Virus record (IMG/VR): IMGVR_UViG_3300023108_000002
DNA length: 64,000 nucleotides
From: a virus
Taxonomy: Duplodnaviria; Caudoviricetes
Direction: 5' to 3' (one strand)
Position 1 is the first letter of the stretch, and the number at the start of each line of letters is the position of its first letter. Positions 1-32,636 of the stretch are shown here, piece by piece. The notes beneath the pieces are model-generated. The model searched no databases. It was not told the DNA's origin and was given only the letters and a program-made list of their open reading frames with translations. The translations under genes and the position numbers were made by a program.

Positions 1-2
1 GT

Positions 3-16273: not shown

Positions 16274-16729
16274 ATGGAAGAAAAATATTCAGTGAAATTG
16301 GCTGAGTTGACACAGGAATCCGAAAAAGATATAAAAATAGATTACCTGAAATTAGCAGATGAAATTGTTCACAATCAGAATTTGATTGGGAAGTGGATGA
16401 CTCATCAACAAGTATACGAAATAAAATATCAGTTTTTAGAGATAGAACACAAAAAGCTTTTGGCAATAAAGACAAAGTACTATACAGGAAAAATGTCGGA
16501 AGATGAAATTGTGGCAAGAGGATGGGAAATTGAAGGAACAAAAATATTAAAATCTGATTTGAATATCTGGATAGATGATGACGAAGAAATTATTAAATCT
16601 AAAAAAAATCTATTGATATTAAAACAGATAATAACTTTGATTGATAAAACCATTGATATTTTGATAGATCAAAAGAAATGGACTATCAAAAATTTTATTG
16701 ATTATAAGAAATGGTTAGAAGGTAATTAA
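16274..16729 (+). CDS. uvsY: recombination mediator UvsY
   Basis: KYYTGK motif, KILKSDL..WIDDDEE, WTIKNFIDY; synteny with uvsW. Confidence 0.88.
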   Translation: MEEKYSVKLAELTQESEKDIKIDYLKLADEIVHNQNLIGKWMTHQQVYEIKYQFLEIEHKKLLAIKTKYYTGKMSEDEIVARGWEIEGTKILKSDLNIWIDDDEEIIKSKKNLLILKQIITLIDKTIDILIDQKKWTIKNFIDYKKWLEGN

Positions 16730-18219
16730 TGAGCAAGTTTTATGTTCACAAACTAAACGAAGTGTATGTTCAAGTAGATTCCCCAGAACTTTTTATGTTG
16801 AAAGAACTGGTGGACTACTTTACCTTTAAGGTGCCTGGCGCTGAGTTTATGCCCGCATATAAGAATAAATATTGGGATGGAAAGATAAGACTTTTCAATC
16901 CTACTAATTGTAAGTTATACTTAGGCCTTGTTGAACAACTAAAATATTTTTGCGAAAAAAATGATTATGAAATAGAATATGATGAAGATTTACAAGATCA
17001 AAATTTTTCACCAAAAGATTTGGAAGCACTTGCAAAATTCATTAATCCACATAGTCAAGGAAAAAAAATTGAATATAGAGATTATCAGTTAGATGCAATC
17101 TATCATGCAATCAAAAAAAATAGAACATTACTTCTTTCCCCGACAGCTTCTGGTAAATCACTCATCATTTATACTTTGGTAAGATTCTATAACATGCACC
17201 CAGAAGTAAAAGGAAAAAAAATTCTAATCATAGTTCCAACCACTTCACTAGTTTCGCAGATGTATGGTGATTTTGCCGATTATGGATGGGATGTAAATAA
17301 GTATTGTCATAAGATATTTGCTGGCCAAGAAAAATATACAGATAAAAAGGTAGTGATATCTACTTGGCAATCGATATACAAAATGCCGAGAGATTATTGG
17401 GATCAATTTGGAGTAGTGATTGGCGATGAATGTCACTTATTTAAAGCAAACTCTCTTAACAAAATCATGGATAGATTAACAGAGTGTAGATTTAGATTTG
17501 GAACAACAGGAACATTAGATGGAACAAAAACTCATAAACTTATTCTTACAGGAATGTTTGGAGATGCAAAACAAGTCACATCTACAAGAAAGCTAATTGA
17601 TAACAAAACTCTCGCAGATTTTAAAATACAATGTCTGGTACTAAAATATCCTATGGAGACATGTAAAGAAATCAAAAAACTGAAATATGCTGATGAGGTA
17701 GAATGGATTGTAACAAATCCTAGAAGAAATGAATTTATAAAAGACTTGACATTAAATCTAAAAGGTAATACACTAGTTCTTTACAATTTTGTAGAAAAAC
17801 ATGGAATACCTATGTACAAATTAATAAAGAATTCTGTAGAAGAAAATAGAAAAGTATTTTTTGTTTCTGGCTCAGTAAATGCAGAAATAAGAGAACAAAT
17901 TAGAGCAACAACGGAAAAAGAAGATAATGCAATTATTATTGCATCTTATGGTACATTCTCTACTGGTGTAAACATTCGTAATTTGCACAATGTTGTTTTC
18001 ACATCTCCGTCAAAGAGTAGAATACGAAACTTGCAGTCTATAGGAAGAGGCCTCAGAAAAGGAAATAATAAAACATCAGCAGTCTTATATGATATAGCTG
18101 ACGATTTTCGTTATAAGAATTATATGAATTTTGCAATACGCCATTTTTACGAACGTATAAATATCTATAATGAAGAAAAGTTTTCGTTTAAAATAAATGA
18201 AATCAAATTATTTGGTTAG
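16729..18219 (+). CDS. uvsW: DNA/RNA helicase UvsW
   Basis: WDGKIRLF, SPTASGKS, DECH, GTTGT, ASYGTFSTGVNI, LQSIGRGLR. Confidence 0.96.
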   Translation: MSKFYVHKLNEVYVQVDSPELFMLKELVDYFTFKVPGAEFMPAYKNKYWDGKIRLFNPTNCKLYLGLVEQLKYFCEKNDYEIEYDEDLQDQNFSPKDLEALAKFINPHSQGKKIEYRDYQLDAIYHAIKKNRTLLLSPTASGKSLIIYTLVRFYNMHPEVKGKKILIIVPTTSLVSQMYGDFADYGWDVNKYCHKIFAGQEKYTDKKVVISTWQSIYKMPRDYWDQFGVVIGDECHLFKANSLNKIMDRLTECRFRFGTTGTLDGTKTHKLILTGMFGDAKQVTSTRKLIDNKTLADFKIQCLVLKYPMETCKEIKKLKYADEVEWIVTNPRRNEFIKDLTLNLKGNTLVLYNFVEKHGIPMYKLIKNSVEENRKVFFVSGSVNAEIREQIRATTEKEDNAIIIASYGTFSTGVNIRNLHNVVFTSPSKSRIRNLQSIGRGLRKGNNKTSAVLYDIADDFRYKNYMNFAIRHFYERINIYNEEKFSFKINEIKLFG

Positions 18220-18226
18220 GAAACTC

Positions 18227-18628
18227 ATGCACGATTTCAAAATAGTCAGGCTATCAACAAAAGAAGTAATTATTTGTAAGACAAATTCTAAAAATGCGTC
18301 TGCAAGTTCAATTATTTTGGAAGATCCGTTTGAAATAAAATCGTTCATGAATCCTCAAACTGGAGACTTTAATTCAACTCTCATAGATTGGTTACAATAT
18401 AGTGATGATACTATAGTAGAAGTTGCCGCGTACAATGTCATTGCAATGAATACACCTTCCCCAGAAATTATTGACCATTATGAAATGATTTTAAGAAGAA
18501 AGGCTGCAGCTGCAAATTCTGAACTCAATGAAACTGAAGGGCCTGGATTAGAAGATGTTGATGAAGAACATGAACATACTATTGAAGAACTTATGAGAAT
18601 GATAAACGGTAATAAAGTCTATCATTAA
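18227..18628 (+). CDS. conserved T4-like protein with Sm-like N-terminus (KIVRLSTKEVII)
   Basis: The KIVRL.xGEE-type motif also occurs in the 34832 ORF; position between uvsW and gp55. Confidence 0.5.
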   Translation: MHDFKIVRLSTKEVIICKTNSKNASASSIILEDPFEIKSFMNPQTGDFNSTLIDWLQYSDDTIVEVAAYNVIAMNTPSPEIIDHYEMILRRKAAAANSELNETEGPGLEDVDEEHEHTIEELMRMINGNKVYH

Positions 18629-18642
18629 GGGTCTACATACCC

Positions 18643-18671
18643 AGTATAACAGTAGAATCAACTTGTGTCAA
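18643..18671 (-). promoter_or_regulatory. antisense sigma70-type promoter TTGACA-N17-TATACT with extended -10 TG
   Basis: The minus strand reads TTGACA caagttgattctactgt TATACT and points into the 18227 ORF and uvsW. Confidence 0.7.
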
Positions 18672-18700
18672 TAGAAAAAAAAATTTATTTTCTATTGACA
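18666..18700. repeat. 13-bp inverted repeat containing back-to-back -35 boxes
   Basis: TGTCAATAGAAAA (18666-18678) is the reverse complement of TTTTCTATTGACA (18688-18700); 9-nt spacer. Confidence 0.85.
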
Positions 18701-18724
18701 AGAAACACTTTTTTATGGTATTAT
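18695..18724 (+). promoter_or_regulatory. sigma70-type early/middle promoter for gp55-47-46
   Basis: TTGACA-N18-TATTAT with TG extension and an A/T-rich UP element. Confidence 0.75.
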
Positions 18725-18753
18725 CTTTGTAATTGTATAAGGAATTATTATGT

Positions 18754-19305
18754 ATGGCTAAGAAAAGCACTAGAAATCATTATGTAGATAACAAAAAGTT
18801 GTTGGAAGAGATGACAAAATATAAGGATGCCGTCAACCTTGCCGCTGAGCAGGACACAGAGCGCCCAAGAGTTCCAAATTATATTGGTGAGTGTATTATG
18901 AAGATTGCACAGCATCTCTCTTATAAACCCAATTTTATCAACTATACATATAAAGAAGAAATGATATCAGATGGTATTGAAAATTGTCTATTGTATATTG
19001 ATAATTTTAATCCAGAAAAATCAAAAAATCCATTCGCATATTTTACTCAGATTATTTACTATGCTTTCATTCGAAGGATTCAAAAAGAAAAGAAACAGAC
19101 TTATGTAAAATATAAGGCATTGGAAAATCAAGAATTGATTGATGAAATTATGCAAGGACCAAATGGTAGTCCTATGAAAAATAATTTCTTAGAATTTATT
19201 CACAATAATATGGATGATTTTCTTGCAGACTTTGAAGAAACCCAAAGAAAGAAAAAACAAAAAGCCAAGGAAAAGAGAGAAGGTAAGGAATCTGAAACTT
19301 CATGA
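18754..19305 (+). CDS. gp55: late-transcription sigma factor gp55
   Basis: HYVDNK, YIGECIMKIA.HLSYKPNFINY, MISDGIENC, NPFAYFTQIIYYAF.RRIQKEKKQ. Confidence 0.97.
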   Translation: MAKKSTRNHYVDNKKLLEEMTKYKDAVNLAAEQDTERPRVPNYIGECIMKIAQHLSYKPNFINYTYKEEMISDGIENCLLYIDNFNPEKSKNPFAYFTQIIYYAFIRRIQKEKKQTYVKYKALENQELIDEIMQGPNGSPMKNNFLEFIHNNMDDFLADFEETQRKKKQKAKEKREGKESETS

Positions 19306-20324
19306 AAATTGCACTGATTACGGACACTCACTTCGGCGCTAGAGGTGACTCCACACTTTTCCATGACTATTTTATGGAATTTTATGATAATGTATTTTTT
19401 CCTTACTTGGAAAAGAATAATATTAAGACTGTAATTCATCTTGGAGATGTTACAGACCGAAGAAAGTTTATCAACTATAATATTCTTGATGGCTTACGAA
19501 GTGGATTTATAAAGAAGATTAAAGACTATGACTCTTATTTTATTATTGGTAATCATGATGTGTATTATAAAAACACAAATCGTATTAACTCTATGGAGCA
19601 ACTTTTCGGGGATGATTTCAAGACTTATACAACGGCCACTACTCTTAATTTTGATGGGACTGACATTTGTTTTATTCCTTGGATAAATTCTGAGAATTAT
19701 GATGAAACTCTAAAACACATAAAGAAAACCAAAGCAAAAATTGCGTTAGGACATTTAGAACTGAATGGTTTTGAAATGATGCGTGGTATCAAGTGTGAAG
19801 CTGGTATGTCTATTGAACACTTTAAAAAATTTGATTTGACTTGTTCTGGACATTTCCATCATAAAAGCAATCAAGGAGAAATTCATTATTTGGGAGCCCC
19901 ATATGAATTATTTTGGAATGATTGTGATGATCCTAAAGGATTTCATATTTTAGATACGGGCTCAATGGAATTGCAGTTTGTTCAAAACCCACATCAAATG
20001 TTTCATAAGATTTATTATGATGAAAATAAAAAATATGATTTGTCAAAATATGAAAACAAATATGTAAAAATTATTGTTAAAAATAAAAGATCTCAATATA
20101 AGTTCGATACATTTGTTGACTCTTTATATAAGAAAGATGTTGCTGATTTATCTATTGTCGATGAAACAGATTTTCAGTTTGAAGAACAAAGTGATGTAGA
20201 CACTACAAAAGACACTATGTCTCTTCTTACAAGTTATATCGATAATTATGAGATTGATGTTGACAAGAACAAACTAAAACAGATTATGCAAGATTTATAT
20301 GTCTCTGCTTTGAGAGGTGATTGA
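19302..20324 (+). CDS. gp47: recombination endonuclease subunit gp47 (Mre11/SbcD-like)
   Basis: ITDTHFG, HLGD, GNHD, GHLE, SGHFH metallophosphoesterase motifs. Confidence 0.96.
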   Translation: MKIALITDTHFGARGDSTLFHDYFMEFYDNVFFPYLEKNNIKTVIHLGDVTDRRKFINYNILDGLRSGFIKKIKDYDSYFIIGNHDVYYKNTNRINSMEQLFGDDFKTYTTATTLNFDGTDICFIPWINSENYDETLKHIKKTKAKIALGHLELNGFEMMRGIKCEAGMSIEHFKKFDLTCSGHFHHKSNQGEIHYLGAPYELFWNDCDDPKGFHILDTGSMELQFVQNPHQMFHKIYYDENKKYDLSKYENKYVKIIVKNKRSQYKFDTFVDSLYKKDVADLSIVDETDFQFEEQSDVDTTKDTMSLLTSYIDNYEIDVDKNKLKQIMQDLYVSALRGD

Positions 20325-22039
20325 TGATTGAGTTTAAAACTATTAAATGGAAGAACTTTCTTTCCACTGGTAATTATTTTACAGAAGTGCAACTAAACCG
20401 TTCATCTTCTACTCTTATTGTTGGTGAGAATGGAGCAGGAAAATCTACCATTTTGGATGCATTGACATTTGGTTTGTTTGGAAAATCTTTTAGAAAAATT
20501 AATAAACCACAGCTTATAAACTCTATAAACAATAAAGATGCTTTGATTGAGATTACCTTTAAAATTGGTAAGAATGATTACTTGGTGCGCCGCGGTATCA
20601 AACCCAATATTTTTGAAATATGGGTAAATGGTAAAATGTTAGACCAAGATTCAAAAATTCGTGATAGCCAGATTTATTTGGAAGAAAACATTCTCAAACT
20701 GAATTATAAGTCATTTACTCAAACTGTTATTTTGGGTAGTGCTACTTTTGTTCCTTTCATGCAACTTTCTGCAATCGATAGAAGAGAAATTATTGAAGAT
20801 ATTTTGGATATAAAAATCTTTTCTGCAATGAATGAAATTCTAAAAGCAAAAATGGCTGCATTGAAAGAAACAATGACAGAAAATGAAAAAAACCGTGAAG
20901 TCCAAGATTATAAGATTGAACTTCAAGAAAGAAATATTGAAGATGCAAAGACGACAAAGAAAACTGCGATTAATACTTTTAAGAAAAAGATAAAAGAAAA
21001 GAAGGCTGAACAGAAACAGTGTATTGACAAAAATACAGAATTGCATGAACAAATATCAAATTTATTGGAAAAGATTATACATGAAAGTAAAATATCTGAT
21101 AGAAAGAAAAAACTTGAACGTCTAGAAACTAAACTCTCAAATAATGCAGAAAAAATACAAAACGACATCTCATGGTTTGAAGGCAATGATGTTTGTCCAT
21201 CATGCCAACAAGATATTAATGAAGATCATAAGAATTGTATTGTGGAAGAGAAGGATAAGAAAAAGGAAGAAGTTTTGACAGCTGTTCAATCTTTGTCTGA
21301 TGAATTGATTGAGATTGATTCTGAATTACATTATATTGAAGAAACCAAAACATCTATCACAAATCTTAATAATGTAGTTAGTTCTAATAATGATAAACAT
21401 CAATATCTACAAAAAAATATTGATGAACTTGAGGCTGAAATAGAAGATGCGGAAAATAATAATACAAGCGTTTCTAAATTAGAAAAGGAATTAAAAGAGT
21501 TTAAAAAGATTTCCAAAGAGTTGGACAATGAACGCAAAACTCTTTCCGAAACAAAAAACTATCATGTGGTTGCATCACAGTTTTTGAAGGACACTGGTGT
21601 AAAAACTTCTATTATAAAATACTATTTGCCAATAATGAACAAGTTAGTAAATAAGTATCTACAAGAAATGGATTTCTATATTAACTTCACAATGGATGAA
21701 AAGTTTAATGAGAATATTAAATCCAGAGGCAGAGAAGGATTTACATATAGTTCTTTTAGTGAAGGAGAGAAGATGAGAATTGACCTTGCTCTCTTGTTTA
21801 CTTGGAGAGAGATTGCTCGAATGAAGAACAGTGTCAACACAAATCTTCTGATTCTTGATGAGGTGTTTGATAGTTCTTTGGATGCGACTGGTACAGACGA
21901 GTTTTTGAAGTTGTTGAACACATTAGGCGGCAACAATGTCTTTGTGATTTCACATAAAGGAGATATTCTATATGATAAGTTTCACAGTGTGATTAAATTT
22001 GAAAAAGTAAAAAACTTTAGCCAAATTGAAAAAAATTGA
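20324..22039 (+). CDS. gp46: recombination endonuclease subunit gp46 (Rad50/SbcC-like)
   Basis: GENGAGKST, CPSC zinc hook, FSEGEK signature, LILDEVFDS, ISH. Confidence 0.97.
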   Translation: MIEFKTIKWKNFLSTGNYFTEVQLNRSSSTLIVGENGAGKSTILDALTFGLFGKSFRKINKPQLINSINNKDALIEITFKIGKNDYLVRRGIKPNIFEIWVNGKMLDQDSKIRDSQIYLEENILKLNYKSFTQTVILGSATFVPFMQLSAIDRREIIEDILDIKIFSAMNEILKAKMAALKETMTENEKNREVQDYKIELQERNIEDAKTTKKTAINTFKKKIKEKKAEQKQCIDKNTELHEQISNLLEKIIHESKISDRKKKLERLETKLSNNAEKIQNDISWFEGNDVCPSCQQDINEDHKNCIVEEKDKKKEEVLTAVQSLSDELIEIDSELHYIEETKTSITNLNNVVSSNNDKHQYLQKNIDELEAEIEDAENNNTSVSKLEKELKEFKKISKELDNERKTLSETKNYHVVASQFLKDTGVKTSIIKYYLPIMNKLVNKYLQEMDFYINFTMDEKFNENIKSRGREGFTYSSFSEGEKMRIDLALLFTWREIARMKNSVNTNLLILDEVFDSSLDATGTDEFLKLLNTLGGNNVFVISHKGDILYDKFHSVIKFEKVKNFSQIEKN

Positions 22040-22049
22040 AAAAAAACTA

Positions 22050-22079
22050 TTGACGAACCATGCAGTAATGGTATATACT
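22050..22079 (+). promoter_or_regulatory. sigma70-type early promoter heading the DNA-modification operon
   Basis: TTGACG followed by TGGTATATACT at 16-18 nt spacing; upstream A-tracts. Confidence 0.7.
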
Positions 22080-22121
22080 GAGATAATACGTCACTCAAAC
22101 TACATTAGAGGATTTTTTCAC

Positions 22122-23531
22122 ATGAATGAAGATGAAATAATTAATATTATCACAAATAGTAGTTTTCAAGATTTACAAAAACTTAGGGTGGACTCTGACC
22201 ACATATCACTTATTGAATTACCAGACATTTATGGTGCTCACCTATATTGCACTTTCATAAATTCTGGAGAGACAATGGATAGATATTTTGGGTGGCATAA
22301 AGGTGAGTTTAATGGTACATACTATGGTTCGCCAGTTAAACATTCAAAAAAGTTCTGGTCAGATATGCGAAAGTATCCTAGTTTAACTTTATGTTTTAAT
22401 GTTGGAACTCCAAGAGATATGAATGTGAGGGAGGGTAAAATACTGAAGGCTATCGATGCAAAGTCTAATGAAAAGTTCTTCAATGAGAGCAATGGTGGTG
22501 GTGCATTAACTAAAGGTCAAAAATCAATTACTGCATTAGATAATATTGTTTATAACTTAGAAAAAAATGTATATCCAATTCAAAAAGTAGATAAACATAA
22601 ACTCTATGCTATACAACCACACCAAGTAAGAGAAGTAATGGAAATACCTAATAAGGTGCAATCTATTCTTAATCATATACTAGATACAAAAGGTAGATGG
22701 TTGGATGGAAATTTTCATTACGTTTTAATTCTTAAAGATTTCTATGGTAAAGATAAACATCTTAGGATAGGTAGTTTTCACACACTAAAAGCTTGTATGA
22801 AAACAGATTTTGTTGGTGAATTAGATGCTGTCTTTATACCGAAAAAAGATTGGATTAATTTAGACGAAACTGAAATTAAAGATTTAGGACATACAGATAA
22901 CAAAAGAGATGATAAGGTAAATGATTCTGTAAGTTTATCAGAGGCTATATCAAATGCCGTTTCTTTTATTAGAAATAATAATATTGAAGACCATAAAGAC
23001 CAAAGTGTAAAAGATAAATTCATGCGTTGGGGATTTACTAAAACTGAATGGGAAGCAACTATTAGAAAAACTTTACGAAATACACTAAATGATAGTAAAG
23101 CAAAAAATGCAATACCACCCAATCATATTAAAAAAAGCTGGACTGAAAAAGAAAAGTCTCAGATGATTGAAAGACATACAGACGAGAATACTTTTGTTTT
23201 TATTTTATCCACAGCTTGGTGGTCAAATAGATGGGTAGGTTTTGACGCACTAATGAATATTGTAAAGAATGAGGAAGCATTTAAAAAAGATTATTGGAAA
23301 ATATTCTGGTTAAATGAATCAGACACAGCGTTTTTAGATTGGAATAAGATAAAAACTAAAAAAGATGAAGAAGGTAATGTGGTTTTAAAACCAACAAGAA
23401 AAACTAATATTGAACATGATTTACAAATTTTGTTTTCAAAGTTTGCTGAAGATATTAGACCTATTCTTATTTTTGAAGATTTACCATATTCAGAACCTAA
23501 CGAAATTAAAAATGATAAAAAAGTATCTTGA
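22122..23531 (+). CDS. hypothetical protein: GIY-YIG(Seg)-like N-terminal domain plus ParB/Srx-like central domain
   Basis: LYC...YFGWH...YYGS...REGKIL...KFFNESNGG resembles Seg-type GIY-YIG. QVRE...IGSFHT resembles a ParB-like fold. ATG at 22122 follows GAGG and the promoter; the ORF-finder start at 22026 lies upstream of the promoter. Confidence 0.5.
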   Translation: MNEDEIINIITNSSFQDLQKLRVDSDHISLIELPDIYGAHLYCTFINSGETMDRYFGWHKGEFNGTYYGSPVKHSKKFWSDMRKYPSLTLCFNVGTPRDMNVREGKILKAIDAKSNEKFFNESNGGGALTKGQKSITALDNIVYNLEKNVYPIQKVDKHKLYAIQPHQVREVMEIPNKVQSILNHILDTKGRWLDGNFHYVLILKDFYGKDKHLRIGSFHTLKACMKTDFVGELDAVFIPKKDWINLDETEIKDLGHTDNKRDDKVNDSVSLSEAISNAVSFIRNNNIEDHKDQSVKDKFMRWGFTKTEWEATIRKTLRNTLNDSKAKNAIPPNHIKKSWTEKEKSQMIERHTDENTFVFILSTAWWSNRWVGFDALMNIVKNEEAFKKDYWKIFWLNESDTAFLDWNKIKTKKDEEGNVVLKPTRKTNIEHDLQILFSKFAEDIRPILIFEDLPYSEPNEIKNDKKVS

Positions 23532-24372
23532 AAAACATATTAAAGATAATGTGTTAGATGAAGAAGTTAGTTTACTATTAAGTGGTGGTCTTGATTCTAT
23601 ATCTGTTGGTATTTCTGCTGAACTAGTTGGGAAGAAAGTAAACGCATATAGTTTTTATCTTGAAGGTGTTCCTTCATATGACTTTGCAATGGCTGCTAAT
23701 ATTGCATCACAAAGAGGTTGGAATTTTACTCCAGTAGTTGTTCCTACTACAAATCTTAATGAAGATTGGTTTAGATTAGTTGATTTGGGTTGTAGAAAGA
23801 AAACTCATTTTGAGTGTGTATTTCCTTTCCTATATGTTTATCCAAAAATAAAAGAAAAGTATGTTCTTACTGGTTGGGGGGCGGATGGATACTTTGGACC
23901 AAGTAAAAAAGCTATGATGCGATATTCTAGTTATAGAAATAAAAAAAACTATGTTAAATATTGTAAAGAACACAATCAAAAAAGATTGAACTGGAACGAA
24001 TTCAGACTTGAATATCTTGATGGAGACTGTGCTGGTTACAAAGAACACACAACCCTTGCGGAAAAACATGATAAGATACACATAGCACCATATAAAGATA
24101 GTAAAGATATTAGAAAAGAATTGATGAATAAGAGTTGGACAGAGTTAAATACACCCAGACAAAAAGAAATTATAAGAAAAGACTTTACAATACTAAAAAA
24201 GTATGGTAATATAAAGCCACATATAAATTTACACCTCGGTTCTGGTATAGATAAATTGTTTGAAACTTTTTTGAAAGACTCGACAATTAATTTCAATAAT
24301 AGAAAAAGAATAATGGATGTTTGTAAAGATTGGTATAAAAATCCGAATAGTTTGAGAAGGTATAATATATGA
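23512..24372 (+). CDS. asparagine-synthetase-like (PP-loop) ATP-dependent amide ligase lacking a glutaminase domain; CmoY-like
   Basis: LLLSGGLDS PP-loop and VLTGWGADGYFG (cf. AsnB TGEGADE.FG). 286 aa from ATG 23512, overlapping the previous stop. Confidence 0.75.
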   Translation: MIKKYLEKHIKDNVLDEEVSLLLSGGLDSISVGISAELVGKKVNAYSFYLEGVPSYDFAMAANIASQRGWNFTPVVVPTTNLNEDWFRLVDLGCRKKTHFECVFPFLYVYPKIKEKYVLTGWGADGYFGPSKKAMMRYSSYRNKKNYVKYCKEHNQKRLNWNEFRLEYLDGDCAGYKEHTTLAEKHDKIHIAPYKDSKDIRKELMNKSWTELNTPRQKEIIRKDFTILKKYGNIKPHINLHLGSGIDKLFETFLKDSTINFNNRKRIMDVCKDWYKNPNSLRRYNI

Positions 24373-25565
24373 GTTATACACCATATAATTTACAAGATGT
24401 TTATGATGCATCTGAACAGAACAAATTTAAAGTGATTTCAACTTTTGCCGGTGGTGGTGGATCTTCCACTGGCTATCGTCTTGCTGGTGGTAAGGTTCTT
24501 GCAGTAAATGAGTTTGTAGAAGAGGCATGTAATACCTATAAAGAAAACTATCCAGAGACACCTATTCTGCCTGGCGATATTAAAGAATTGACTGGGCAAC
24601 ATTTCTTGGATGCAGCTGGAGTAAAAGTTGGGGAGATAGATATTCTGGATGGTTCTCCGCCATGTTCTGCGTTTTCTGTGGCAGGCAAACTATCTCATAA
24701 TAGTATTGAAACTGAATACTTAGATTTTGATGGTAATGTTATGACACGCAAAGAAAGTGGTAAACATTCTGATGGATGGGGTCAAACTAAAAAGTATTCT
24801 GATGGAAAGATAGTTGAAAATATTGAAGATTTGTTTTTTGATTTTCTGAGAATTGCTGATGAAATAAAACCAAAAGTAATCATTGCAGAAAATGTTAAGG
24901 GATTGACTGTTGGAGAAGCAAAAAACTATCTTAATCAAATACTCAATAGATTCGAGGAAATTGGATATAATATTTCGTATCAAGTTTTGGATAGTAGATA
25001 TTTTGGAGTTTCGCAGACTCGAACCAGATGTATTTTTATTGGAGTAAGACAGGACATTGCCGATCAAGTTGGCTTGAACTTTATGACAATTCAAAATGTT
25101 TTTCCAACTCCAGATTTGAAAACAATTCCTCTGAAAGATGCTTTGATTGGTTTAGAATATGATGATGAAGAAATTTCTTATCTTACTGAAAAGTTTTCTA
25201 ATACTGCATATTGGAAACAAACTGGTAGTATAATGCCCGTTGATCCAGATAAAGTTCTAACAGGAGGCGATTATCACCCGAAAGGACACCACTTTAACTT
25301 GAAAAGAGTATCACAGTATGCTCCAGCACCGACCTTAACCGCTATGGGGAGTGCTGATACTACTGCTGGTGCATTCCACTGGGCAGAACCTAGAAAGTTG
25401 ACCCTCGGCGAGCTGAAGCGCATTATGTCACTTCCAGATGACTTTAAACTTACTGGAAAATGGAATCAAAAAGCAGAAAGAATTGGAAGGATGGTTCCGC
25501 CACTGATGATGAAAAGAATTGCAGAATCTGTATATAAAAATGTTTTGGAGAAATATAATGGCTGA
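24369..25565 (+). CDS. C5-cytosine DNA methyltransferase-fold enzyme, predicted carboxymethyltransferase (CmoX-like)
   Basis: Motif I FAGGGG, motif IV SPPC (Cys99), motif VI ENV, motif VIII QTRTR. Motif X reads IGRMVPP instead of the canonical IGNAVPP. Confidence 0.85.
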   Translation: MSYTPYNLQDVYDASEQNKFKVISTFAGGGGSSTGYRLAGGKVLAVNEFVEEACNTYKENYPETPILPGDIKELTGQHFLDAAGVKVGEIDILDGSPPCSAFSVAGKLSHNSIETEYLDFDGNVMTRKESGKHSDGWGQTKKYSDGKIVENIEDLFFDFLRIADEIKPKVIIAENVKGLTVGEAKNYLNQILNRFEEIGYNISYQVLDSRYFGVSQTRTRCIFIGVRQDIADQVGLNFMTIQNVFPTPDLKTIPLKDALIGLEYDDEEISYLTEKFSNTAYWKQTGSIMPVDPDKVLTGGDYHPKGHHFNLKRVSQYAPAPTLTAMGSADTTAGAFHWAEPRKLTLGELKRIMSLPDDFKLTGKWNQKAERIGRMVPPLMMKRIAESVYKNVLEKYNG

Positions 25566-26256
25566 TTTCACATTTGCACACCGCGAAGAAGGTTTTGATG
25601 AACATATTGATAAAAGTATTAGAGGTTATGGAGATTTGTTGGATGATGTAATTTCTCTATCAAGATACTTTGTGGAAGATGGTACTAATGTTTATGATAT
25701 TGGATGTTCAACTGGTAAACTGACTCAACGAATGTTGGAGGCAAATCAGGATTTTTGTTATGATGCAAATTATATTGGTATTGAAGTTGCAAATGGATTT
25801 TATGATGATATGATAAAAAGACAGGAGCATATCAGATCAATACACCCTTGGGTCCGTGTTGATTTTAGACATGAAGATGTAAGAGACACTGAATTTGAAA
25901 ATGCCTCTTTAATTACTTCAATATTTACTTTGCAGTTTATGTCAAAAATTGATCGGCGATTTACTATTCAAAGAATTCATGATGGATTGAATGAAGGTGG
26001 CGGTTTTATTTTTGCAGAAAAAACTATTTGTCAAAATGCAAATTTTCAAGACATGCTCACATTTAATTATTATGATTTCAAAAGAAAATCTTTTGATACA
26101 GAAGATATTATGAATAAAGAAAGAACTCTTAGAAACATGTTGAAACCAAACACTTGGCAAGAAATAAATGAAATGATGTGGGACGCAGGTTTTGAAGATG
26201 TCCAACCTTTCTGGAGAAATCATATGTTTGTTGGAGCAATTGCCATAAAAAAATAA
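25558..26256 (+). CDS. cmoA: carboxy-SAM synthase CmoA homolog
   Basis: F.F......FDEHIDKSIRGY, VYDIGCSTG, SIFTLQF, GGGFIFAEK and KERTLRNML follow the CmoA pattern. ATG at 25558 after GGAG. Confidence 0.8.
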   Translation: MADFTFAHREEGFDEHIDKSIRGYGDLLDDVISLSRYFVEDGTNVYDIGCSTGKLTQRMLEANQDFCYDANYIGIEVANGFYDDMIKRQEHIRSIHPWVRVDFRHEDVRDTEFENASLITSIFTLQFMSKIDRRFTIQRIHDGLNEGGGFIFAEKTICQNANFQDMLTFNYYDFKRKSFDTEDIMNKERTLRNMLKPNTWQEINEMMWDAGFEDVQPFWRNHMFVGAIAIKK

Positions 26257-26264
26257 AAAGGCCC

Positions 26265-26293
26265 TTGACAAAACTGATTCGTTCCTGTAGCAT
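26265..26293 (+). promoter_or_regulatory. sigma70-type early promoter
   Basis: GGCCC-TTGACA-N17-TAGCAT; GATTC in the spacer. Confidence 0.7.
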
Positions 26294-26331
26294 GTAAATA
26301 TAAGTGATGATTCCTATGAAGGAAATATGTG

Positions 26332-28704
26332 ATGTCAAATGTTCTATTTACAAAGAACTCCAAAAGTCTCCTAGCCAAACTGATGGCAGAAGAAGACCTT
26401 ACGGTTCAACATCGTAAAGTTGAAACCGCGTTTTTTGACGTTGAAAAACGTCTATTAGTTGTACCAATTTGGAAAGATATGTCCGATAACCTTTATGACT
26501 TGTTTATGGGTCATGAAGTTGGACATGCTTTATATACTCCAGCGGATACAGAAGTTCTCCAAGAAGCAATCGACCGTTCCAACAAAGACTTTGTAAACGT
26601 AGTCGAAGATGCTCGTATTGAGAAAATGATGAAAATAAAATTCCCTGGCTTGCGGGCTCCTTTCTACAAAGGATATCAAGAGTTAAATGAGCGAGATTTC
26701 TTTGGGACAAATAATAAAGAAATTTCTACCTTTTCTTTCATTGACCGTATCAATCTGTTTTACAAATCTTCAATGAATGATTTTGAGTTTAACATGATAT
26801 TTTCAGAAGAAGAAAAACCTCTTGTGAAGAAAGTTGGAAAAACAGAAACTTTCGAAGAAGTTGCAGCTGTTGCAGAAGAGATTTACAACTTCATCAAAGA
26901 TAAAGTTCAAAATCGTCAAGAACAGAATTCCCAACAAAGTGGTGGTGAAGGTTCTGGTGAACAATCTCAAAATTCAGAAATGTCAGAACTAAAAGATGAC
27001 AATTCACACTCTTCTTCATCTTCTCAAACTGAAACTGAAAATGAAGAAGAAAATCAAACGGATGGTTCTGGTGATGGCGGTTCTTCTGATGATACAGGTG
27101 AAGATGAACAAAATTCACAAGAATCTGGTAGTTCTTCTAATTCTTCTGATGACGAATCTGATGGAGAAAATGGAAAATCTTATACATCAGCTGAAGAAGA
27201 ACAAAATGCAAATGATGTTGCATCATTGGGTGGTGGAAGTGGTTTCTCTGACCCTGATGAATTTTCCTCTAAAACTGACAATTCAATGTCAGAAAATATG
27301 TCACAAATGATTGATCGTATGGCAGATAATATTGAATATTACACATTATCTGATTTAAATCTGAAAGATCATGTGATAAGTCATGATATGATTCATGATG
27401 CAATCGATGCGGCCAAAACTTATTTTTACAATAACTCAGATTGGACTAGTTTTGCAAAAAATAATGTAGACAAGATTTCTCTTTACAAAAAAGTATTGAG
27501 TGATAACAACGCTACTATAAACTATCTTGTAAAAGAATTTGAAATGAAAAAATCTGCACAAGAATATGCAGCGAGTTATGAAACAAAATCTGGAAATCTG
27601 AATACCAGCAAAATTTGGAGTTACAAACTAAATGATGATATCTTCAAACGTAAATCGATTACTCCAGAAGGCAAAAATCATGGCATGGTAATGATGGTCG
27701 ATTGGTCGGGTTCTATGCACTCTATGTTATATAAGACCGTTGTTCAAACTGTTGTCCTTGCCACATTTTGTAAACGTGTTGGAATTCCTTTTGATGTTTA
27801 CAATTTCTCTGATCAAAACCGAGATTATGATGATGGTAAAAAGTTGTTTGCCGATAAAAAGAACGGTGTTTATAACAATCGGACATTTATCTATAATAAT
27901 GTTAAACTTCATCATGTTCTCAGCAGTTCAATGAAAAAATCAGAATTTATCAGGGCATGTAACAACTATCTGTTTTTGGCTTGGGGATTGAACAATTGTT
28001 ATGGATTGATGCGTTCTAACAAATTGCCTCATAATGTCGATCTTCAGCTTGGTGGAACTCCTCTAAATCAAAGTTTGATGATTCTTGACAAAGTTGTTCA
28101 TGAATTCAAACGGAAACATTCTGTAGAAAAAATGAACTTTGTTGTTTTGAGTGATGGTGCTGCCGGCGATACAATTGAGATAGTTGATGAAAATTCTGGT
28201 TGGCATCGTTCAGTTGCAGCAACCTGGCGGCATCATCCCAAAACTTCTGTGGTTTATCATGAGCGTTCAAAAAAGACTTTCGTTCATCAACAAGGTTATC
28301 GTTCTAAAAATAAAAATGCAAAAAATCCTACTGAGTTTCTTGTCGAAACAATGAAAGAAGTTCATGGTGCAAAATCGATTGGATTTTACATTATAGACCG
28401 TACTTATGATCTAAATAACGCAATTCGGGCATATGTATTTCGGGATCGTGATGGATACCATATGTATAATAACGAACTTTCAAAAGTTCGTTCAGAGTGT
28501 CGCAAAAATGGGTTTTATGCAGCAAAAGATTGTGGGTATGATGAATACTATATTCTTGATATGCGTACTCAAAATGAAGATAGTGAACTTGAAGTTGATG
28601 AAAATATGACAAAAGCAAAAATTGCCAAACAGTTTTCAAAATTCCAAGGTTCAAAGAAAACCAGTCGGCAAATGTTAAATAAATTTGTCGATATCGTGAA
28701 GTAA
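26332..28704 (+). CDS. CobT-like protein: N-terminal HExxH metallopeptidase-like domain, acidic Ser/Gly linker, C-terminal VWA domain
   Basis: HEVGH...EDARIE; MIDAS VDWSGSM, GGTP, LSDG. Confidence 0.8.
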   Translation: MSNVLFTKNSKSLLAKLMAEEDLTVQHRKVETAFFDVEKRLLVVPIWKDMSDNLYDLFMGHEVGHALYTPADTEVLQEAIDRSNKDFVNVVEDARIEKMMKIKFPGLRAPFYKGYQELNERDFFGTNNKEISTFSFIDRINLFYKSSMNDFEFNMIFSEEEKPLVKKVGKTETFEEVAAVAEEIYNFIKDKVQNRQEQNSQQSGGEGSGEQSQNSEMSELKDDNSHSSSSSQTETENEEENQTDGSGDGGSSDDTGEDEQNSQESGSSSNSSDDESDGENGKSYTSAEEEQNANDVASLGGGSGFSDPDEFSSKTDNSMSENMSQMIDRMADNIEYYTLSDLNLKDHVISHDMIHDAIDAAKTYFYNNSDWTSFAKNNVDKISLYKKVLSDNNATINYLVKEFEMKKSAQEYAASYETKSGNLNTSKIWSYKLNDDIFKRKSITPEGKNHGMVMMVDWSGSMHSMLYKTVVQTVVLATFCKRVGIPFDVYNFSDQNRDYDDGKKLFADKKNGVYNNRTFIYNNVKLHHVLSSSMKKSEFIRACNNYLFLAWGLNNCYGLMRSNKLPHNVDLQLGGTPLNQSLMILDKVVHEFKRKHSVEKMNFVVLSDGAAGDTIEIVDENSGWHRSVAATWRHHPKTSVVYHERSKKTFVHQQGYRSKNKNAKNPTEFLVETMKEVHGAKSIGFYIIDRTYDLNNAIRAYVFRDRDGYHMYNNELSKVRSECRKNGFYAAKDCGYDEYYILDMRTQNEDSELEVDENMTKAKIAKQFSKFQGSKKTSRQMLNKFVDIVK

Positions 28705-28718
28705 AAAATGAAAAGCCC

Positions 28719-28747
28719 TTGACAAAAGGGCTATCATTTGATACCAT
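28719..28747 (+). promoter_or_regulatory. sigma70-type early promoter
   Basis: TTGACA-N17-TACCAT with TG extension; the -35 overlaps the inverted repeat AGCCCTT/AAGGGCT. Confidence 0.7.
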
Positions 28748-28795
28748 AATAATGTAATTGATGATTCGTGAAACCTTCCAAGTGGAGAATATATA

Positions 28796-29956
28796 ATGTG
28801 GAATAAAACGAAAAAAATTGAGTTTCTTACGAAACTCATGGCAGAAAGTGGTTCTGTTGTTTCCAAACAAGAAATCAAGTCGGCGGCTTCCGCTTTTGGT
28901 GAAGCAAGTCCACAATGGATGTGGAAACCAGAATTTCGAGCCGGACATGGTAAATATGATATTTCAAAATATGCAATGAAACTCACTGGTAATGTAGTCC
29001 AGATGAAACCAGTTGCACAAACAGTGACTGCTGTTCCTACTACAGTAGTTTTGCCTGAACGTCATATCGATTCTCTCGTTCCAGAGAAAGATCCTAACTT
29101 TGTGAAATTTGGATTTTACAATGATTTGAAAACTATCCTTCAATCAAAAATGTTTTATCCTGTTTTCATTACTGGTTTGTCTGGTAACGGTAAAACTTAT
29201 GGAACACAACAACTTTGTGCCCAACTAAATCGTGAATGTATCACGGTTCCTATTACAATCGAAACTGATGAATCTGACCTTCTTGGCGACAAAACTCTTG
29301 TTGATGGTAATGTTCTGTTTTCTCAGGGCCCTGTAATTGACGCAATGGAACGTGGCGCAGTTCTTATTCTTGATGAAGTTGACCTTGCATCAAATAAAAT
29401 TATGTGTTTGCAATCCATTATTGATGGTAAAGGTGTTTACCTCAAAAAAGATAATCGGTTTGTAAAACCAGCTCCCGGCTTTACTGTGATTGCTACAGCA
29501 AACACAAAAGGTAAAGGTTCTGATGATGGACGTTTCATTGGTACTAATGTAATGAACGAGGCGTTTCTTGAGCGTTTCAAAATTACATTTGAACAAGAAT
29601 ATCCCAATCAATCAGTTGAGAAAAAAATTCTCAGCAACCATCTGCAATCTTGCAAAGGTTCTGTTACTGATGAAGATGTGTCGGTGATTGAAAATCTTAC
29701 GGTTTGGGCATCTGCCATTCGTAAAACCTTTGAAGAGGGTGGGATTGATGAAATCATTTCGACTCGGCGTTTGGTTCACATTGTAGAAACATTCTCTATC
29801 TTTGGAAATGTTTTGAAGGCTGTTGAACTTTGTACAAATCGTTTTGATGATGATACGAAAGCATCATTTGTAGATCTATTTTCCAAAATTTATGGCGGAG
29901 AAGAAATCAATGAAACTGAAACTGAAGAAACATATGAAGAGGAAGTACCCTTTTGA
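28796..29956 (+). CDS. cobS: MoxR/CobS-like AAA+ ATPase
   Basis: Walker A GLSGNGKT, Walker B ILDEVD, ATANTKGKGSDDGRFIGTNVMNEAFLERF, ISTRRL. Confidence 0.88.
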   Translation: MWNKTKKIEFLTKLMAESGSVVSKQEIKSAASAFGEASPQWMWKPEFRAGHGKYDISKYAMKLTGNVVQMKPVAQTVTAVPTTVVLPERHIDSLVPEKDPNFVKFGFYNDLKTILQSKMFYPVFITGLSGNGKTYGTQQLCAQLNRECITVPITIETDESDLLGDKTLVDGNVLFSQGPVIDAMERGAVLILDEVDLASNKIMCLQSIIDGKGVYLKKDNRFVKPAPGFTVIATANTKGKGSDDGRFIGTNVMNEAFLERFKITFEQEYPNQSVEKKILSNHLQSCKGSVTDEDVSVIENLTVWASAIRKTFEEGGIDEIISTRRLVHIVETFSIFGNVLKAVELCTNRFDDDTKASFVDLFSKIYGGEEINETETEETYEEEVPF

Positions 29957-31081: not shown

Positions 31082-32032
31082 ATGGACAATTTTTTATGGG
31101 TAGAAAAATATCGTCCATCCGATATCGATAATTGTATTCTAACTGATGAACTAAAATCAACATTCAAAGAGTTTGTTGATACAGGAAGTTTACCCAATCT
31201 CCTATTGTCTGGCGGGCCAGGTGTTGGTAAAACAACTCTGGCTCGTGCCTTGTGCAATGAAATGAAAATGGACTATATCTTAATCAACGGTTCCGAAGAT
31301 AGTGGTATTGATGTTCTAAGAAATAAGATTCGAAACTATGCATCAACTGTAAGTTTTGATACTGGAAATAGTAAAGAATTTGGAAAGGTTATCATTTTAG
31401 ACGAAGCGGATTATCTAAATCCACAATCAACTCAGCCCGCTCTGCGTGGATTCATTGAAGAGTTTTCTGGTAATTGTAGATTTATTCTTACATGCAATTT
31501 CAAGAATCGTATCATTGAACCACTGCATAGTAGATGTTCTCTTGTAGAATTTAAAATCAAAAAATCCGACAAACCAAAATTGGCAGGAACTTTTTTCAAT
31601 AGAGTAAAAACTATTCTTGATAAAGAAAATATTTCTTATAAAGAAAAGGTGGTTGTGGAACTTGTAATGAAACATTTTCCAGATTGGAGAAGAGTCTTAA
31701 ATGAACTCCAGAGATATTCTGTTGGTGGTGAAATAGATGAAGGCCTTCTAACTGATGTGGGAGAGGTAAATATAAACAAACTCACATCGGCGATGAAGGA
31801 TAAGAATTTCACAGAGATTAGAGGATGGACAACTCAGAACTTGGATAATGATCCAAATACTTTATATAGAAAAATCTATGATGGACTGTATGAACACGCA
31901 GAACCATCTTCAATTCCTCAAGCAGTTGTGACTATTGCAGACTATTCATACAAGTCTGCATTTGTTGCCGATCAAGAAATAAATCTTGTGGCGTGTTTGA
32001 CAGAGTTGATGATGGAGTGTGATTGGAAATGA
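31082..32032 (+). CDS. gp44: clamp loader large subunit gp44
   Basis: LWVEKYRP, GGPGVGKTT, IILDEAD, CRFILTCN, SRC, FPDWRR. Confidence 0.97.
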   Translation: MDNFLWVEKYRPSDIDNCILTDELKSTFKEFVDTGSLPNLLLSGGPGVGKTTLARALCNEMKMDYILINGSEDSGIDVLRNKIRNYASTVSFDTGNSKEFGKVIILDEADYLNPQSTQPALRGFIEEFSGNCRFILTCNFKNRIIEPLHSRCSLVEFKIKKSDKPKLAGTFFNRVKTILDKENISYKEKVVVELVMKHFPDWRRVLNELQRYSVGGEIDEGLLTDVGEVNINKLTSAMKDKNFTEIRGWTTQNLDNDPNTLYRKIYDGLYEHAEPSSIPQAVVTIADYSYKSAFVADQEINLVACLTELMMECDWK

Positions 32033-32250
32033 TAAAACCAAATACATCATTCTATTTAAATGTGAGAGACATTGAAATTATTGAACAAGCTCTCAGGGCA
32101 AAAGCAGGCCGAAGAGGCCTTGCTATCGCTCAGGGAGAAACAAGCGATAAACTTAGAGAAGAGATGCATGAAATTCAAGATTTATTAGGAAGAATTCATG
32201 AACAAAAAACATGGTATCGGCCTCAAAAAGATATATATGTGAGTGGATAA
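32029..32250 (+). CDS. hypothetical protein inserted between gp44 and gp62
   Basis: ATGA overlap with the gp44 stop; helical 73-aa product. Confidence 0.55.
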   Translation: MIKPNTSFYLNVRDIEIIEQALRAKAGRRGLAIAQGETSDKLREEMHEIQDLLGRIHEQKTWYRPQKDIYVSG

Positions 32251-32636
32251 TGAGTTACGATTTATTTAAAGATTATGTGCCAGCAATTTCTCATACTAAA
32301 AAGAGATTGATGGATTCTTTGGACGAAGAATGGGAAAAGAAGTATCAATCATTTTTGGTAAATAGAAACTTTTCTAATTATCACGATACTATTATGTATG
32401 CAAATGAAATGAATATGCGTCCTCATATGGACAAAAAAATGCAATTTGATTATTTACTAAATAGTATACGTCCAAGGAAAAGATTTTCGCCTTGGCATAA
32501 AAAGTCTATTCATAATGATTTTAATCATGTAAAAGAATATTATGGATATAATAATAAAAAAACAGAGGAAGCTCTTAATATCCTCTCAAGCGAACAGATT
32601 GATGAAATTAAGAGCAAACTGAATAAAGGCGGATAA
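32250..32636 (+). CDS. gp62: clamp loader small subunit gp62
   Basis: FLVNRNFS, YANEMN, QFDYLLNSIRPRKRFSPW, VKEYYGYN..K. Confidence 0.95.
   Translation: MSYDLFKDYVPAISHTKKRLMDSLDEEWEKKYQSFLVNRNFSNYHDTIMYANEMNMRPHMDKKMQFDYLLNSIRPRKRFSPWHKKSIHNDFNHVKEYYGYNNKKTEEALNILSSEQIDEIKSKLNKGG

Follow-up and report, generated by a model that had tools for sequence, protein, structure and literature searches.

Which amine would a phage-encoded ligase attach to its own DNA, and would that amine be the same in phages that are otherwise nearly identical? This question is raised by a locus on a 64,000-nucleotide stretch of a Caudoviricetes (Duplodnaviria) virus, IMG/VR record IMGVR_UViG_3300023108_000002 (“the window” hereafter means that whole stretch), where a 286-aa protein, P0001, is encoded next to homologs of CmoX, a DNA cytosine C5-carboxymethyltransferase, and CmoA, a carboxy-S-adenosylmethionine (carboxy-SAM) synthase. 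An original prediction, made from the sequence without database searches, read P0001 as an asparagine synthetase-like ligase devoid of a glutaminase domain, which would adenylate a carboxyl group carried by DNA and couple it to an external amine. The ligase is a new member of an already published kind of enzyme, the CmoY family, and we consider it very likely that P0001 is a CmoY-type, ATP-dependent amide ligase acting on 5-carboxymethylcytosine (5cxmC) in DNA. What is new here is the signature of its branch, termed “A-type” (an insert and His241), and the repeated exchange of the slot in which the ligase gene resides.

A new member of the CmoY family

The CmoA-CmoX-CmoY pathway, with glycine as the amine of SpCmoY, was published in December 2025 (PMC12783734). 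SpCmoY, from Synechococcus phage S-B43, carries out an ATP-dependent ligation of glycine to 5cxmC in DNA (Yang et al., Nat Commun 2025, PMC12783734): the purified enzyme requires ATP and glycine, and S-B43 phage DNA contains its product base. The same study counted 2,251 such ligases alongside 5,615 CmoX genes in phage contigs, and defined the SpCmoY similarity-network cluster at 1e-56, the members of which are said to retain the glycine-carboxylate-binding residues (PMC12783734). No literature on CmoY variants was found after that paper.

P0001 aligned with SpCmoY (QDH50619.1, UniProt A0A514ABJ0; S-B43 gene identity confirmed from the source data of PMC12783734) along residues 1–274 of 286, at 41% identity and an E-value of 4e-73. 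This value lies beyond the 1e-56 network threshold, a correspondence that is approximate since it comes from a single pairwise comparison, and we infer that P0001 belongs to the SpCmoY cluster. When 128 family members were placed in a tree, P0001 fell within a well-supported clade of 22 rows that SpCmoY joins at a node of 39, the two representing sister lineages inside this 39-row sub-group. Both are stand-alone AsnB-type synthetase domains of ~270–290 aa, with a PP-loop ~24 residues from the N-terminus, all family-invariant residues in common, and a place in a Cmo cluster of a T4-like marine phage. They differ in gene order (Y-X-A in the window, A-Y-X in S-B43), in isoelectric point (pI; 9.4 for P0001, 5.8 for SpCmoY), and in the presence of a ParB/sulfiredoxin (Srx)-like gene ahead of P0001, S-B43 having none at the corresponding place. 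When 1.84 billion cluster representatives were searched exhaustively, 544 clusters matched the ligase at E ≤ 1e-3, nearly all of them stand-alone proteins of about 270–290 aa. For cellular genomes, a single-protein scan of genome contigs gave only one PP-loop-only match, in a Clostridia metagenome-assembled genome, and hence no sign of the branch to which P0001 belongs.

The architecture of P0001 matched the original description. Translation yields an open frame of 286 aa at 23512–24372 (+), where the reverse strand is closed by many stop codons, and we place the start at ATG 23512 and not at TTG 23410 because SpCmoY and >100 homologs (280–290 aa) align from residue 1. As had been noted, the protein opens almost at the PP-loop: SGGLDS occupies residues 24–29 with 23 residues ahead of it, which include a single N-terminal helix in the AlphaFold2 (AF2) model. 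Pfam Asn_synthase (PF00733) matched residues 15–164 (E 1e-10), and the PHROGs match was an unnamed family, phrog_26038. A 96-member family profile aligned to residues 208–443 of Escherichia coli AsnB and to residues 224–462 of beta-lactam synthetase (beta-LS), i.e., to the synthetase domain only, hence the N-terminal nucleophile (Ntn) glutaminase domain is truly absent, as claimed. The C-terminal half is also basic, as stated (pI 9.6, net +12), within a protein of net charge +15. This charge does not reflect AT-bias or base composition, since the neighboring CmoX (pI 5.5) and CmoA (pI 5.1) are both acidic; a large share of it lies in a K/R-rich insert at residues 139–159.

Fold and catalytic residues

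Foldseek matched the confident AF2 model of the ligase (pLDDT 94.5, pTM 0.91) best to beta-LS (1MC1, TMq 0.72), carbapenam synthetase (CarA; 1Q19, 0.70), and AsnB (1CT9, 0.65). With AsnB (E. coli 1CT9; human ASNS 6GQ3), P0001 has in common the synthetase fold, the SGGxDS motif, the Mg-binding Asp, the EKxxLR lysine, and a predicted chemistry running from an acyl-adenylate to an amide, but P0001 has neither the Ntn glutaminase domain nor the ammonia tunnel. Beta-LS (1JGT/1MC1) and CarA (1Q15/1Q19), the closest structural matches (TMq 0.70–0.72), resemble it in using a nitrogen nucleophile other than ammonia and in having a His447 that corresponds to His241 of P0001; they differ in keeping a dead N-terminal domain, which P0001 lacks, and in closing a ring within one small molecule.

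In profile alignments, S24–S29 of P0001 corresponded to AsnB 234–239, D125 to the Mg-binding D351, and K218 to K429, the lysine of EKxxLR. Further equivalences were W122 with AsnB E348 and beta-LS Y348, H237 with AsnB K449 and beta-LS/CarA K443, and H241 with beta-LS/CarA H447. The Tyr348/Glu382/Lys443 set of beta-LS and CarA is thus not conserved in P0001, which has Trp122 and His237 at two of these positions and a variable residue at the one aligned with Glu382. Two pairings modeled on beta-LS Tyr348-Glu382, Trp122/Glu178 and Trp122/His179, were rejected as catalytic pairs: the clade is variable at position 178, and family-wide there is no co-variation of position 122 with 179.

All family-invariant or 90%-conserved residues are kept in P0001 (including S24, G26, D28, S29, D57, K97, E101, P105, G121, D125, R165, P193, P215, and K218), with the sole exception of position 241, where Gln is replaced by His. 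Judged by this retention of near-invariant columns, the ligase looks enzymatically active. P0001 and SpCmoY have H99, Y127, R165, Y168, K218, R222, K235, H237, and N239 in common and differ at positions 122 and 241. Few family positions vary as widely as 122, where L, I, W, V, S, H, M, A, Y, D, and other residues occur, and this fits a possible role in amine choice.

These residues also bear on the name that Pfam and other databases give to the domain, asparagine synthase, on which reading P0001 would be an asparagine synthetase that depends on ammonia, or some other amidotransferase for small molecules, working in phage or host metabolism and not on DNA. We regard this as very improbable. With a cutoff of 267.1 bits, the AsnB model TIGR01536 reached a score of 33.1. 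The AsnB residues T322, T323, R325, E348, and K449, which we take to be catalytic or Asp-binding, are largely replaced: the T322/T323/R325 segment reads KTHFE in P0001 (T98/H99/E101, only T322 being matched), Glu348 has become Trp122, and Lys449 has become His237.

Linkage to CmoX and CmoA

The genomic setting of the ligase argues in the same direction. Of 31 IMG/VR loci with a gene related to that of P0001, all 31 have a CmoX homolog adjoining it, and a CmoA homolog is present in these loci wherever the contig reaches far enough, as anticipated by the original prediction, which had tied the ligase to CmoA and a methyltransferase (MTase). The window CmoX is 58% identical to SpCmoX and has the motif-X Arg where methyltransferases carry Asn. 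Among the 544 matching clusters, the long exceptions to the stand-alone form were CmoY proteins fused to a C5-MTase, in both orders, and every fused MTase carried the motif-X Arg. Strict linkage with CmoX and fusion to C5-MTases both support a DNA-bound substrate; together with the activity of the homolog SpCmoY on DNA in vitro (PMC12783734), they speak against an asparagine synthetase as well.

A QueC-like enzyme of 7-deazaguanine synthesis, or another PP-loop enzyme acting on RNA or free nucleotides, is just as improbable. Some family members do have weak matches to QueC (PF06508), confined to the PP-loop region, but P0001 itself matched neither PF06508 nor TIGR00364, and over its whole length the fold is that of the AsnB, beta-LS, and CarA synthetase domains, with no QueC chain among the Foldseek matches listed. 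Likewise, the annotation of the open reading frames (ORFs) from 16729 to 29956 includes no deazaguanine genes, CmoB was not found beside the genes, and the acceptor enzyme for the carboxymethyl group is, in this locus, a homolog of DNA C5-MTases.

We therefore favor a DNA-modifying ligase, in which P0001 would perform the last step of the CmoA-CmoX-CmoY cytosine hypermodification pathway. CmoA would make carboxy-SAM, from which CmoX would move the carboxymethyl group onto C5 of cytosines in phage DNA; the ligase, as a stand-alone AsnB-type PP-loop domain, would adenylate the carboxylate of 5cxmC using ATP, and a free amine would then attack the adenylated base, leaving an amide on it and releasing AMP and pyrophosphate. 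The adenylation of a DNA-bound carboxyl and the coupling of an external amine, both part of the original prediction, were demonstrated experimentally for the homolog SpCmoY (PMC12783734) and extend by homology to P0001, whose activity and DNA substrate are in this sense predicted. Its treatment of the amine donor as a blank is out of date for the CmoY family, given the use of glycine by SpCmoY (PMC12783734).

Several of the loci and proteins surveyed depart from the arrangement seen in the window. Single-chain fusions occur as Y-X (P0178, P0191, P0265) and X-Y (P0190, P0284), and are candidates for one-protein “write and decorate” enzymes. One 413-aa protein (P0258) combines a CmoY-like N-terminus with a weak match to the uracil-DNA-glycosylase superfamily (PF03167, E 1.6e-4, residues 262–404, below the Pfam cutoff). 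In L013 (1637–5825), the order is CmoX, CmoA, ~1.5 kb, and an A-type CmoY, i.e., the ligase is not always directly upstream of CmoX. Two loci (L027:2390–4761 and L028:2780–5379) contain CmoY relatives (45–46%) beside divergent MTase (23–28%) and CmoA-like (27–28%) genes, and may represent a distant variant of the Cmo system. Finally, the cultured cyanophages S-CRM01 (L002) and RN05-S (L003) encode CmoA and CmoX with no ligase between or beside them; they represent a natural state with the “handle only”, as do the 22 ligase-free metagenomic loci described below.

Exchange of the ligase slot between near-identical phages

The nearest virus record compared, IMGVR_UViG_3300007236_000007 (44.6 kb; hereafter G001), is collinear with window positions 2229–45216 in three blocks of 98.4–99.2% nucleotide identity, ~43 kb in all. 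The main break in this collinearity, at 22089–24354, comprises exactly the ORF upstream of the ligase and the ligase. G001 fills this slot with two genes, an unrelated 410-aa ORF and a CmoY of 272 aa. The latter has only 44% identity to P0001 and 47% to SpCmoY, and we refer to its lineage as “G-type”; the CmoX and CmoA downstream of the slot are 98% identical between the two genomes. The divergence opens immediately downstream of a conserved promoter-like site and closes 14 nt before the CmoX ATG.

We surveyed the slot in the 80 IMG/VR loci whose CmoX ranked as most similar, taking as A-type any ligase with ≥55% identity to P0001. An A-type ligase was present in 22 loci (window included), a G-type ligase in 27, and a ligase of another lineage in 3, while 22 loci had no ligase and 6 were not assessable. 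A minimum of 19 changes is needed to place these states on the CmoX tree, and none of 200 label shuffles reached the same degree of clustering; we conclude that slot state partly follows descent, yet switches often. Independent near-isogenic pairs all break at the CmoX start, both for A-type versus G-type (L075 and L074, 99.86% identity over 3.5 kb; L006 and L103, 99.3%) and for A-type versus no ligase (L063 and L064, 98.2%; L091 and L100, 98.4%). One further pair, L071/L019, was dropped as an A-versus-G swap, as it consists of two near-identical intermediate sequences split by the 55% classification rule. Overall, this suggests that it is decoration, and not carboxymethylation, that evolves fast in the Cmo system.

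Since 22 of the 80 related contigs do without a ligase, the slot is dispensable, and P0001 could be a decaying, non-working passenger brought in with the neighboring ParB-like gene. This appears highly unlikely: the frame is open, the catalytic motifs are all intact, >120 relatives at 55–93% identity retain the same motifs, and the ligase is translationally coupled on both sides (Table 1).

Glycine or another amine in the A-type branch

The A-type branch comprises ~130 sequences, all metagenomic, with >120 clusters at 55–93% identity to P0001 and a median pI of 9.3. Compared to SpCmoY, it is distinguished by Trp122 instead of Ile, His241 instead of Gln, several more fixed changes, and the insert at residues 139–159, the core of which is a conserved NY(V/I)KYC and which probably helps to hold DNA. 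The branch is thus a large, uncultured, metagenomic one with its own insert and active-site-loop substitution. Since the pathway and the glycine of SpCmoY are already published (PMC12783734), the enzyme alone adds little; what the locus offers are natural near-isogenic pairs, in which the flanks are 98–99.9% identical and the ligase cassette is the sole difference. Such pairs raise the question of whether CmoY lineages that have diverged also differ in the amides they put on DNA.

For the A-type ligase, the most likely amine is glycine, which would yield 5gcxmC, or else a different alpha-amino acid. Some considerations weigh against carrying the SpCmoY reaction over to P0001. The cultured phages searched had no A-type ligase, their best match being the S-B43 group at 41%, and at such identity between sequences the co-substrate need not match. 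In addition, A-type enzymes depart from SpCmoY at the positions aligned with the amine side and the catalytic loop, 122 and 241, and by the 21-residue insert, and the residue equivalences and pocket assignments derive from profile alignments, not from a ligand-bound structure.

A rival reading is that the A-type enzyme performs the same chemistry with a different amine (another amino acid, ammonia, or a polyamine), so that the final base would not be 5gcxmC. We consider this possible but doubtful. The conserved A-type signature of His241 and the K/R-rich insert speaks for it, but position 241 flips between His and Gln inside the A clade, reverting to Gln in some members, and may thus be neutral. 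Trp122 is aligned with AsnB Glu348 and beta-LS Tyr348, and SpCmoY has Ile there; however, Trp122 is common to A-type and G-type and therefore without power to separate them, the other fixed A-versus-G differences are conservative, and Trp, being larger than Ile, would speak against a bulkier amine. Lineages only 44% identical swap repeatedly in 98–99.9% identical backgrounds, always at the CmoX start, as expected for non-equivalent alleles, but T4-like marine phages often exchange cassettes in mosaic fashion, and this can be neutral or owed to the co-swapped ParB-like gene. Recurrent replacement of the slot is expected if ligase alleles are not interchangeable, which is not proof that they are not: the slot would show an identical pattern under neutral mosaicism, or if selection acted on the upstream gene that swaps with the ligase.

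Were the amine indeed different, near-identical A-type, G-type, and ligase-free phages would differ in their cytosine chemistry. We tentatively suggest, as the less probable outcome, that the A-type ligase attaches a non-glycine amine, and that A, G, and empty slots amount to “base serotypes” of near-isogenic phages whose differences would lie almost solely in the group carried by their 5cxmC, presumably maintained by selection from host defenses that read particular modified bases. Two-step schemes in which a handle is installed and then decorated, with decoration genes that vary among close relatives, are known from glucosylated hydroxymethylcytosine in T-even phages, with its alternative alpha- and beta-glucosyltransferases, and from amino-acid adducts of 5-hydroxymethyldeoxyuridine. 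In such hydroxymethyl-pyrimidine systems, a hydroxyl is glycosylated or passes through a pyrophosphate intermediate, whereas here the handle would be a carboxyl and the decoration an amide ligation.

Genes and sites around the ligase

The features of the locus are listed in Table 1.

Table 1 Ligase locus and adjacent features, in window coordinates.
Feature	Position	Strand	Description
Sigma-70-like promoter	22050..22079	+	TTGACG, 18 nt, TATACT; ahead of the cassette, conserved in G001 at the left edge of the swap
Swapped segment (upstream ORF and CmoY)	22089..24354	.	Replaced by a non-homologous 2.07-kb segment in G001; flanks 98.4–99.2% identical
469-aa ORF, ParB/Noc/sulfiredoxin-like domain	22122..23531	+	Fold match; stop overlaps CmoY start by 20 nt
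Probable CmoY-type ATP-dependent amide ligase (P0001)	23512..24372	+	286 aa, AsnB-family synthetase domain only
PP-loop SGGLDS, ATP pyrophosphatase motif	23581..23598	+	Residues 24–29; aligns to AsnB 234–239
Trp122	23875..23877	+	Aligns with AsnB Glu348 and beta-LS Tyr348 (beside the attacking amine); Ile in SpCmoY
K/R-rich insert SSYRNKKNYVKYCKEHNQKRL	23926..23988	+	Residues 139–159; A-type-specific, absent from SpCmoY and G-type
His241, HxNLxLG loop	24232..24234	+	Gln in 92% of family representatives and in SpCmoY; aligns with His447 of the beta-LS/CarA catalytic loop
CmoX, DNA cytosine C5-carboxymethyltransferase	24369..25565	+	SPPC motif; IGRMVPP, Arg in motif X; ATG overlaps CmoY stop (ATGA)
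CmoA, carboxy-SAM synthase homolog	25519..26256	+	61% identity to SpCmoA; CmoA equivalog models match

The 469-aa ORF ahead of the ligase, which swaps jointly with it between near-identical phages, had no Pfam or PHROG match, and Pfam gave no GIY-YIG domain in it even at E up to 10. Its AF2 model (pLDDT 73) matched Noc in Foldseek (7NFU, E 1e-4), followed by ParB-CTP and Srx. A ParB-like fold would fit this location, as ParBc-domain proteins frequently accompany CmoX (PMC12783734). Protein-atlas matches of this ORF and of the 410-aa ORF of G001 were to ParB_N, DndB, or GmrSD_N, and are leads only, the ParB_N lead of the 410-aa ORF being weak. Homologs of the upstream ORF (25–32% identity) also precede an A-type CmoY in L004, L005, L012, and L014. 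For the promoter-like site, a consensus scan alone was not significant, and its support comes from conservation at the left edge of the swap.

Downstream of the ligase, the window CmoX (24369–25565) carries a 17-residue insertion directly after SPPC relative to SpCmoX. The true start of CmoA is probably ATG 25558, because homology begins at MADFTFAH; the listed TTG start would overlap CmoX by 47 nt.

Beyond the locus, the sole other internal break in the 43 kb collinear with G001 lies at window positions 32250–32253, where G001 (31096–31654) holds ~557 bp extra. At the left end, positions 1–1266 of G001 have no alignment to the window, and the facing window positions 1–2228 may be another variable region.

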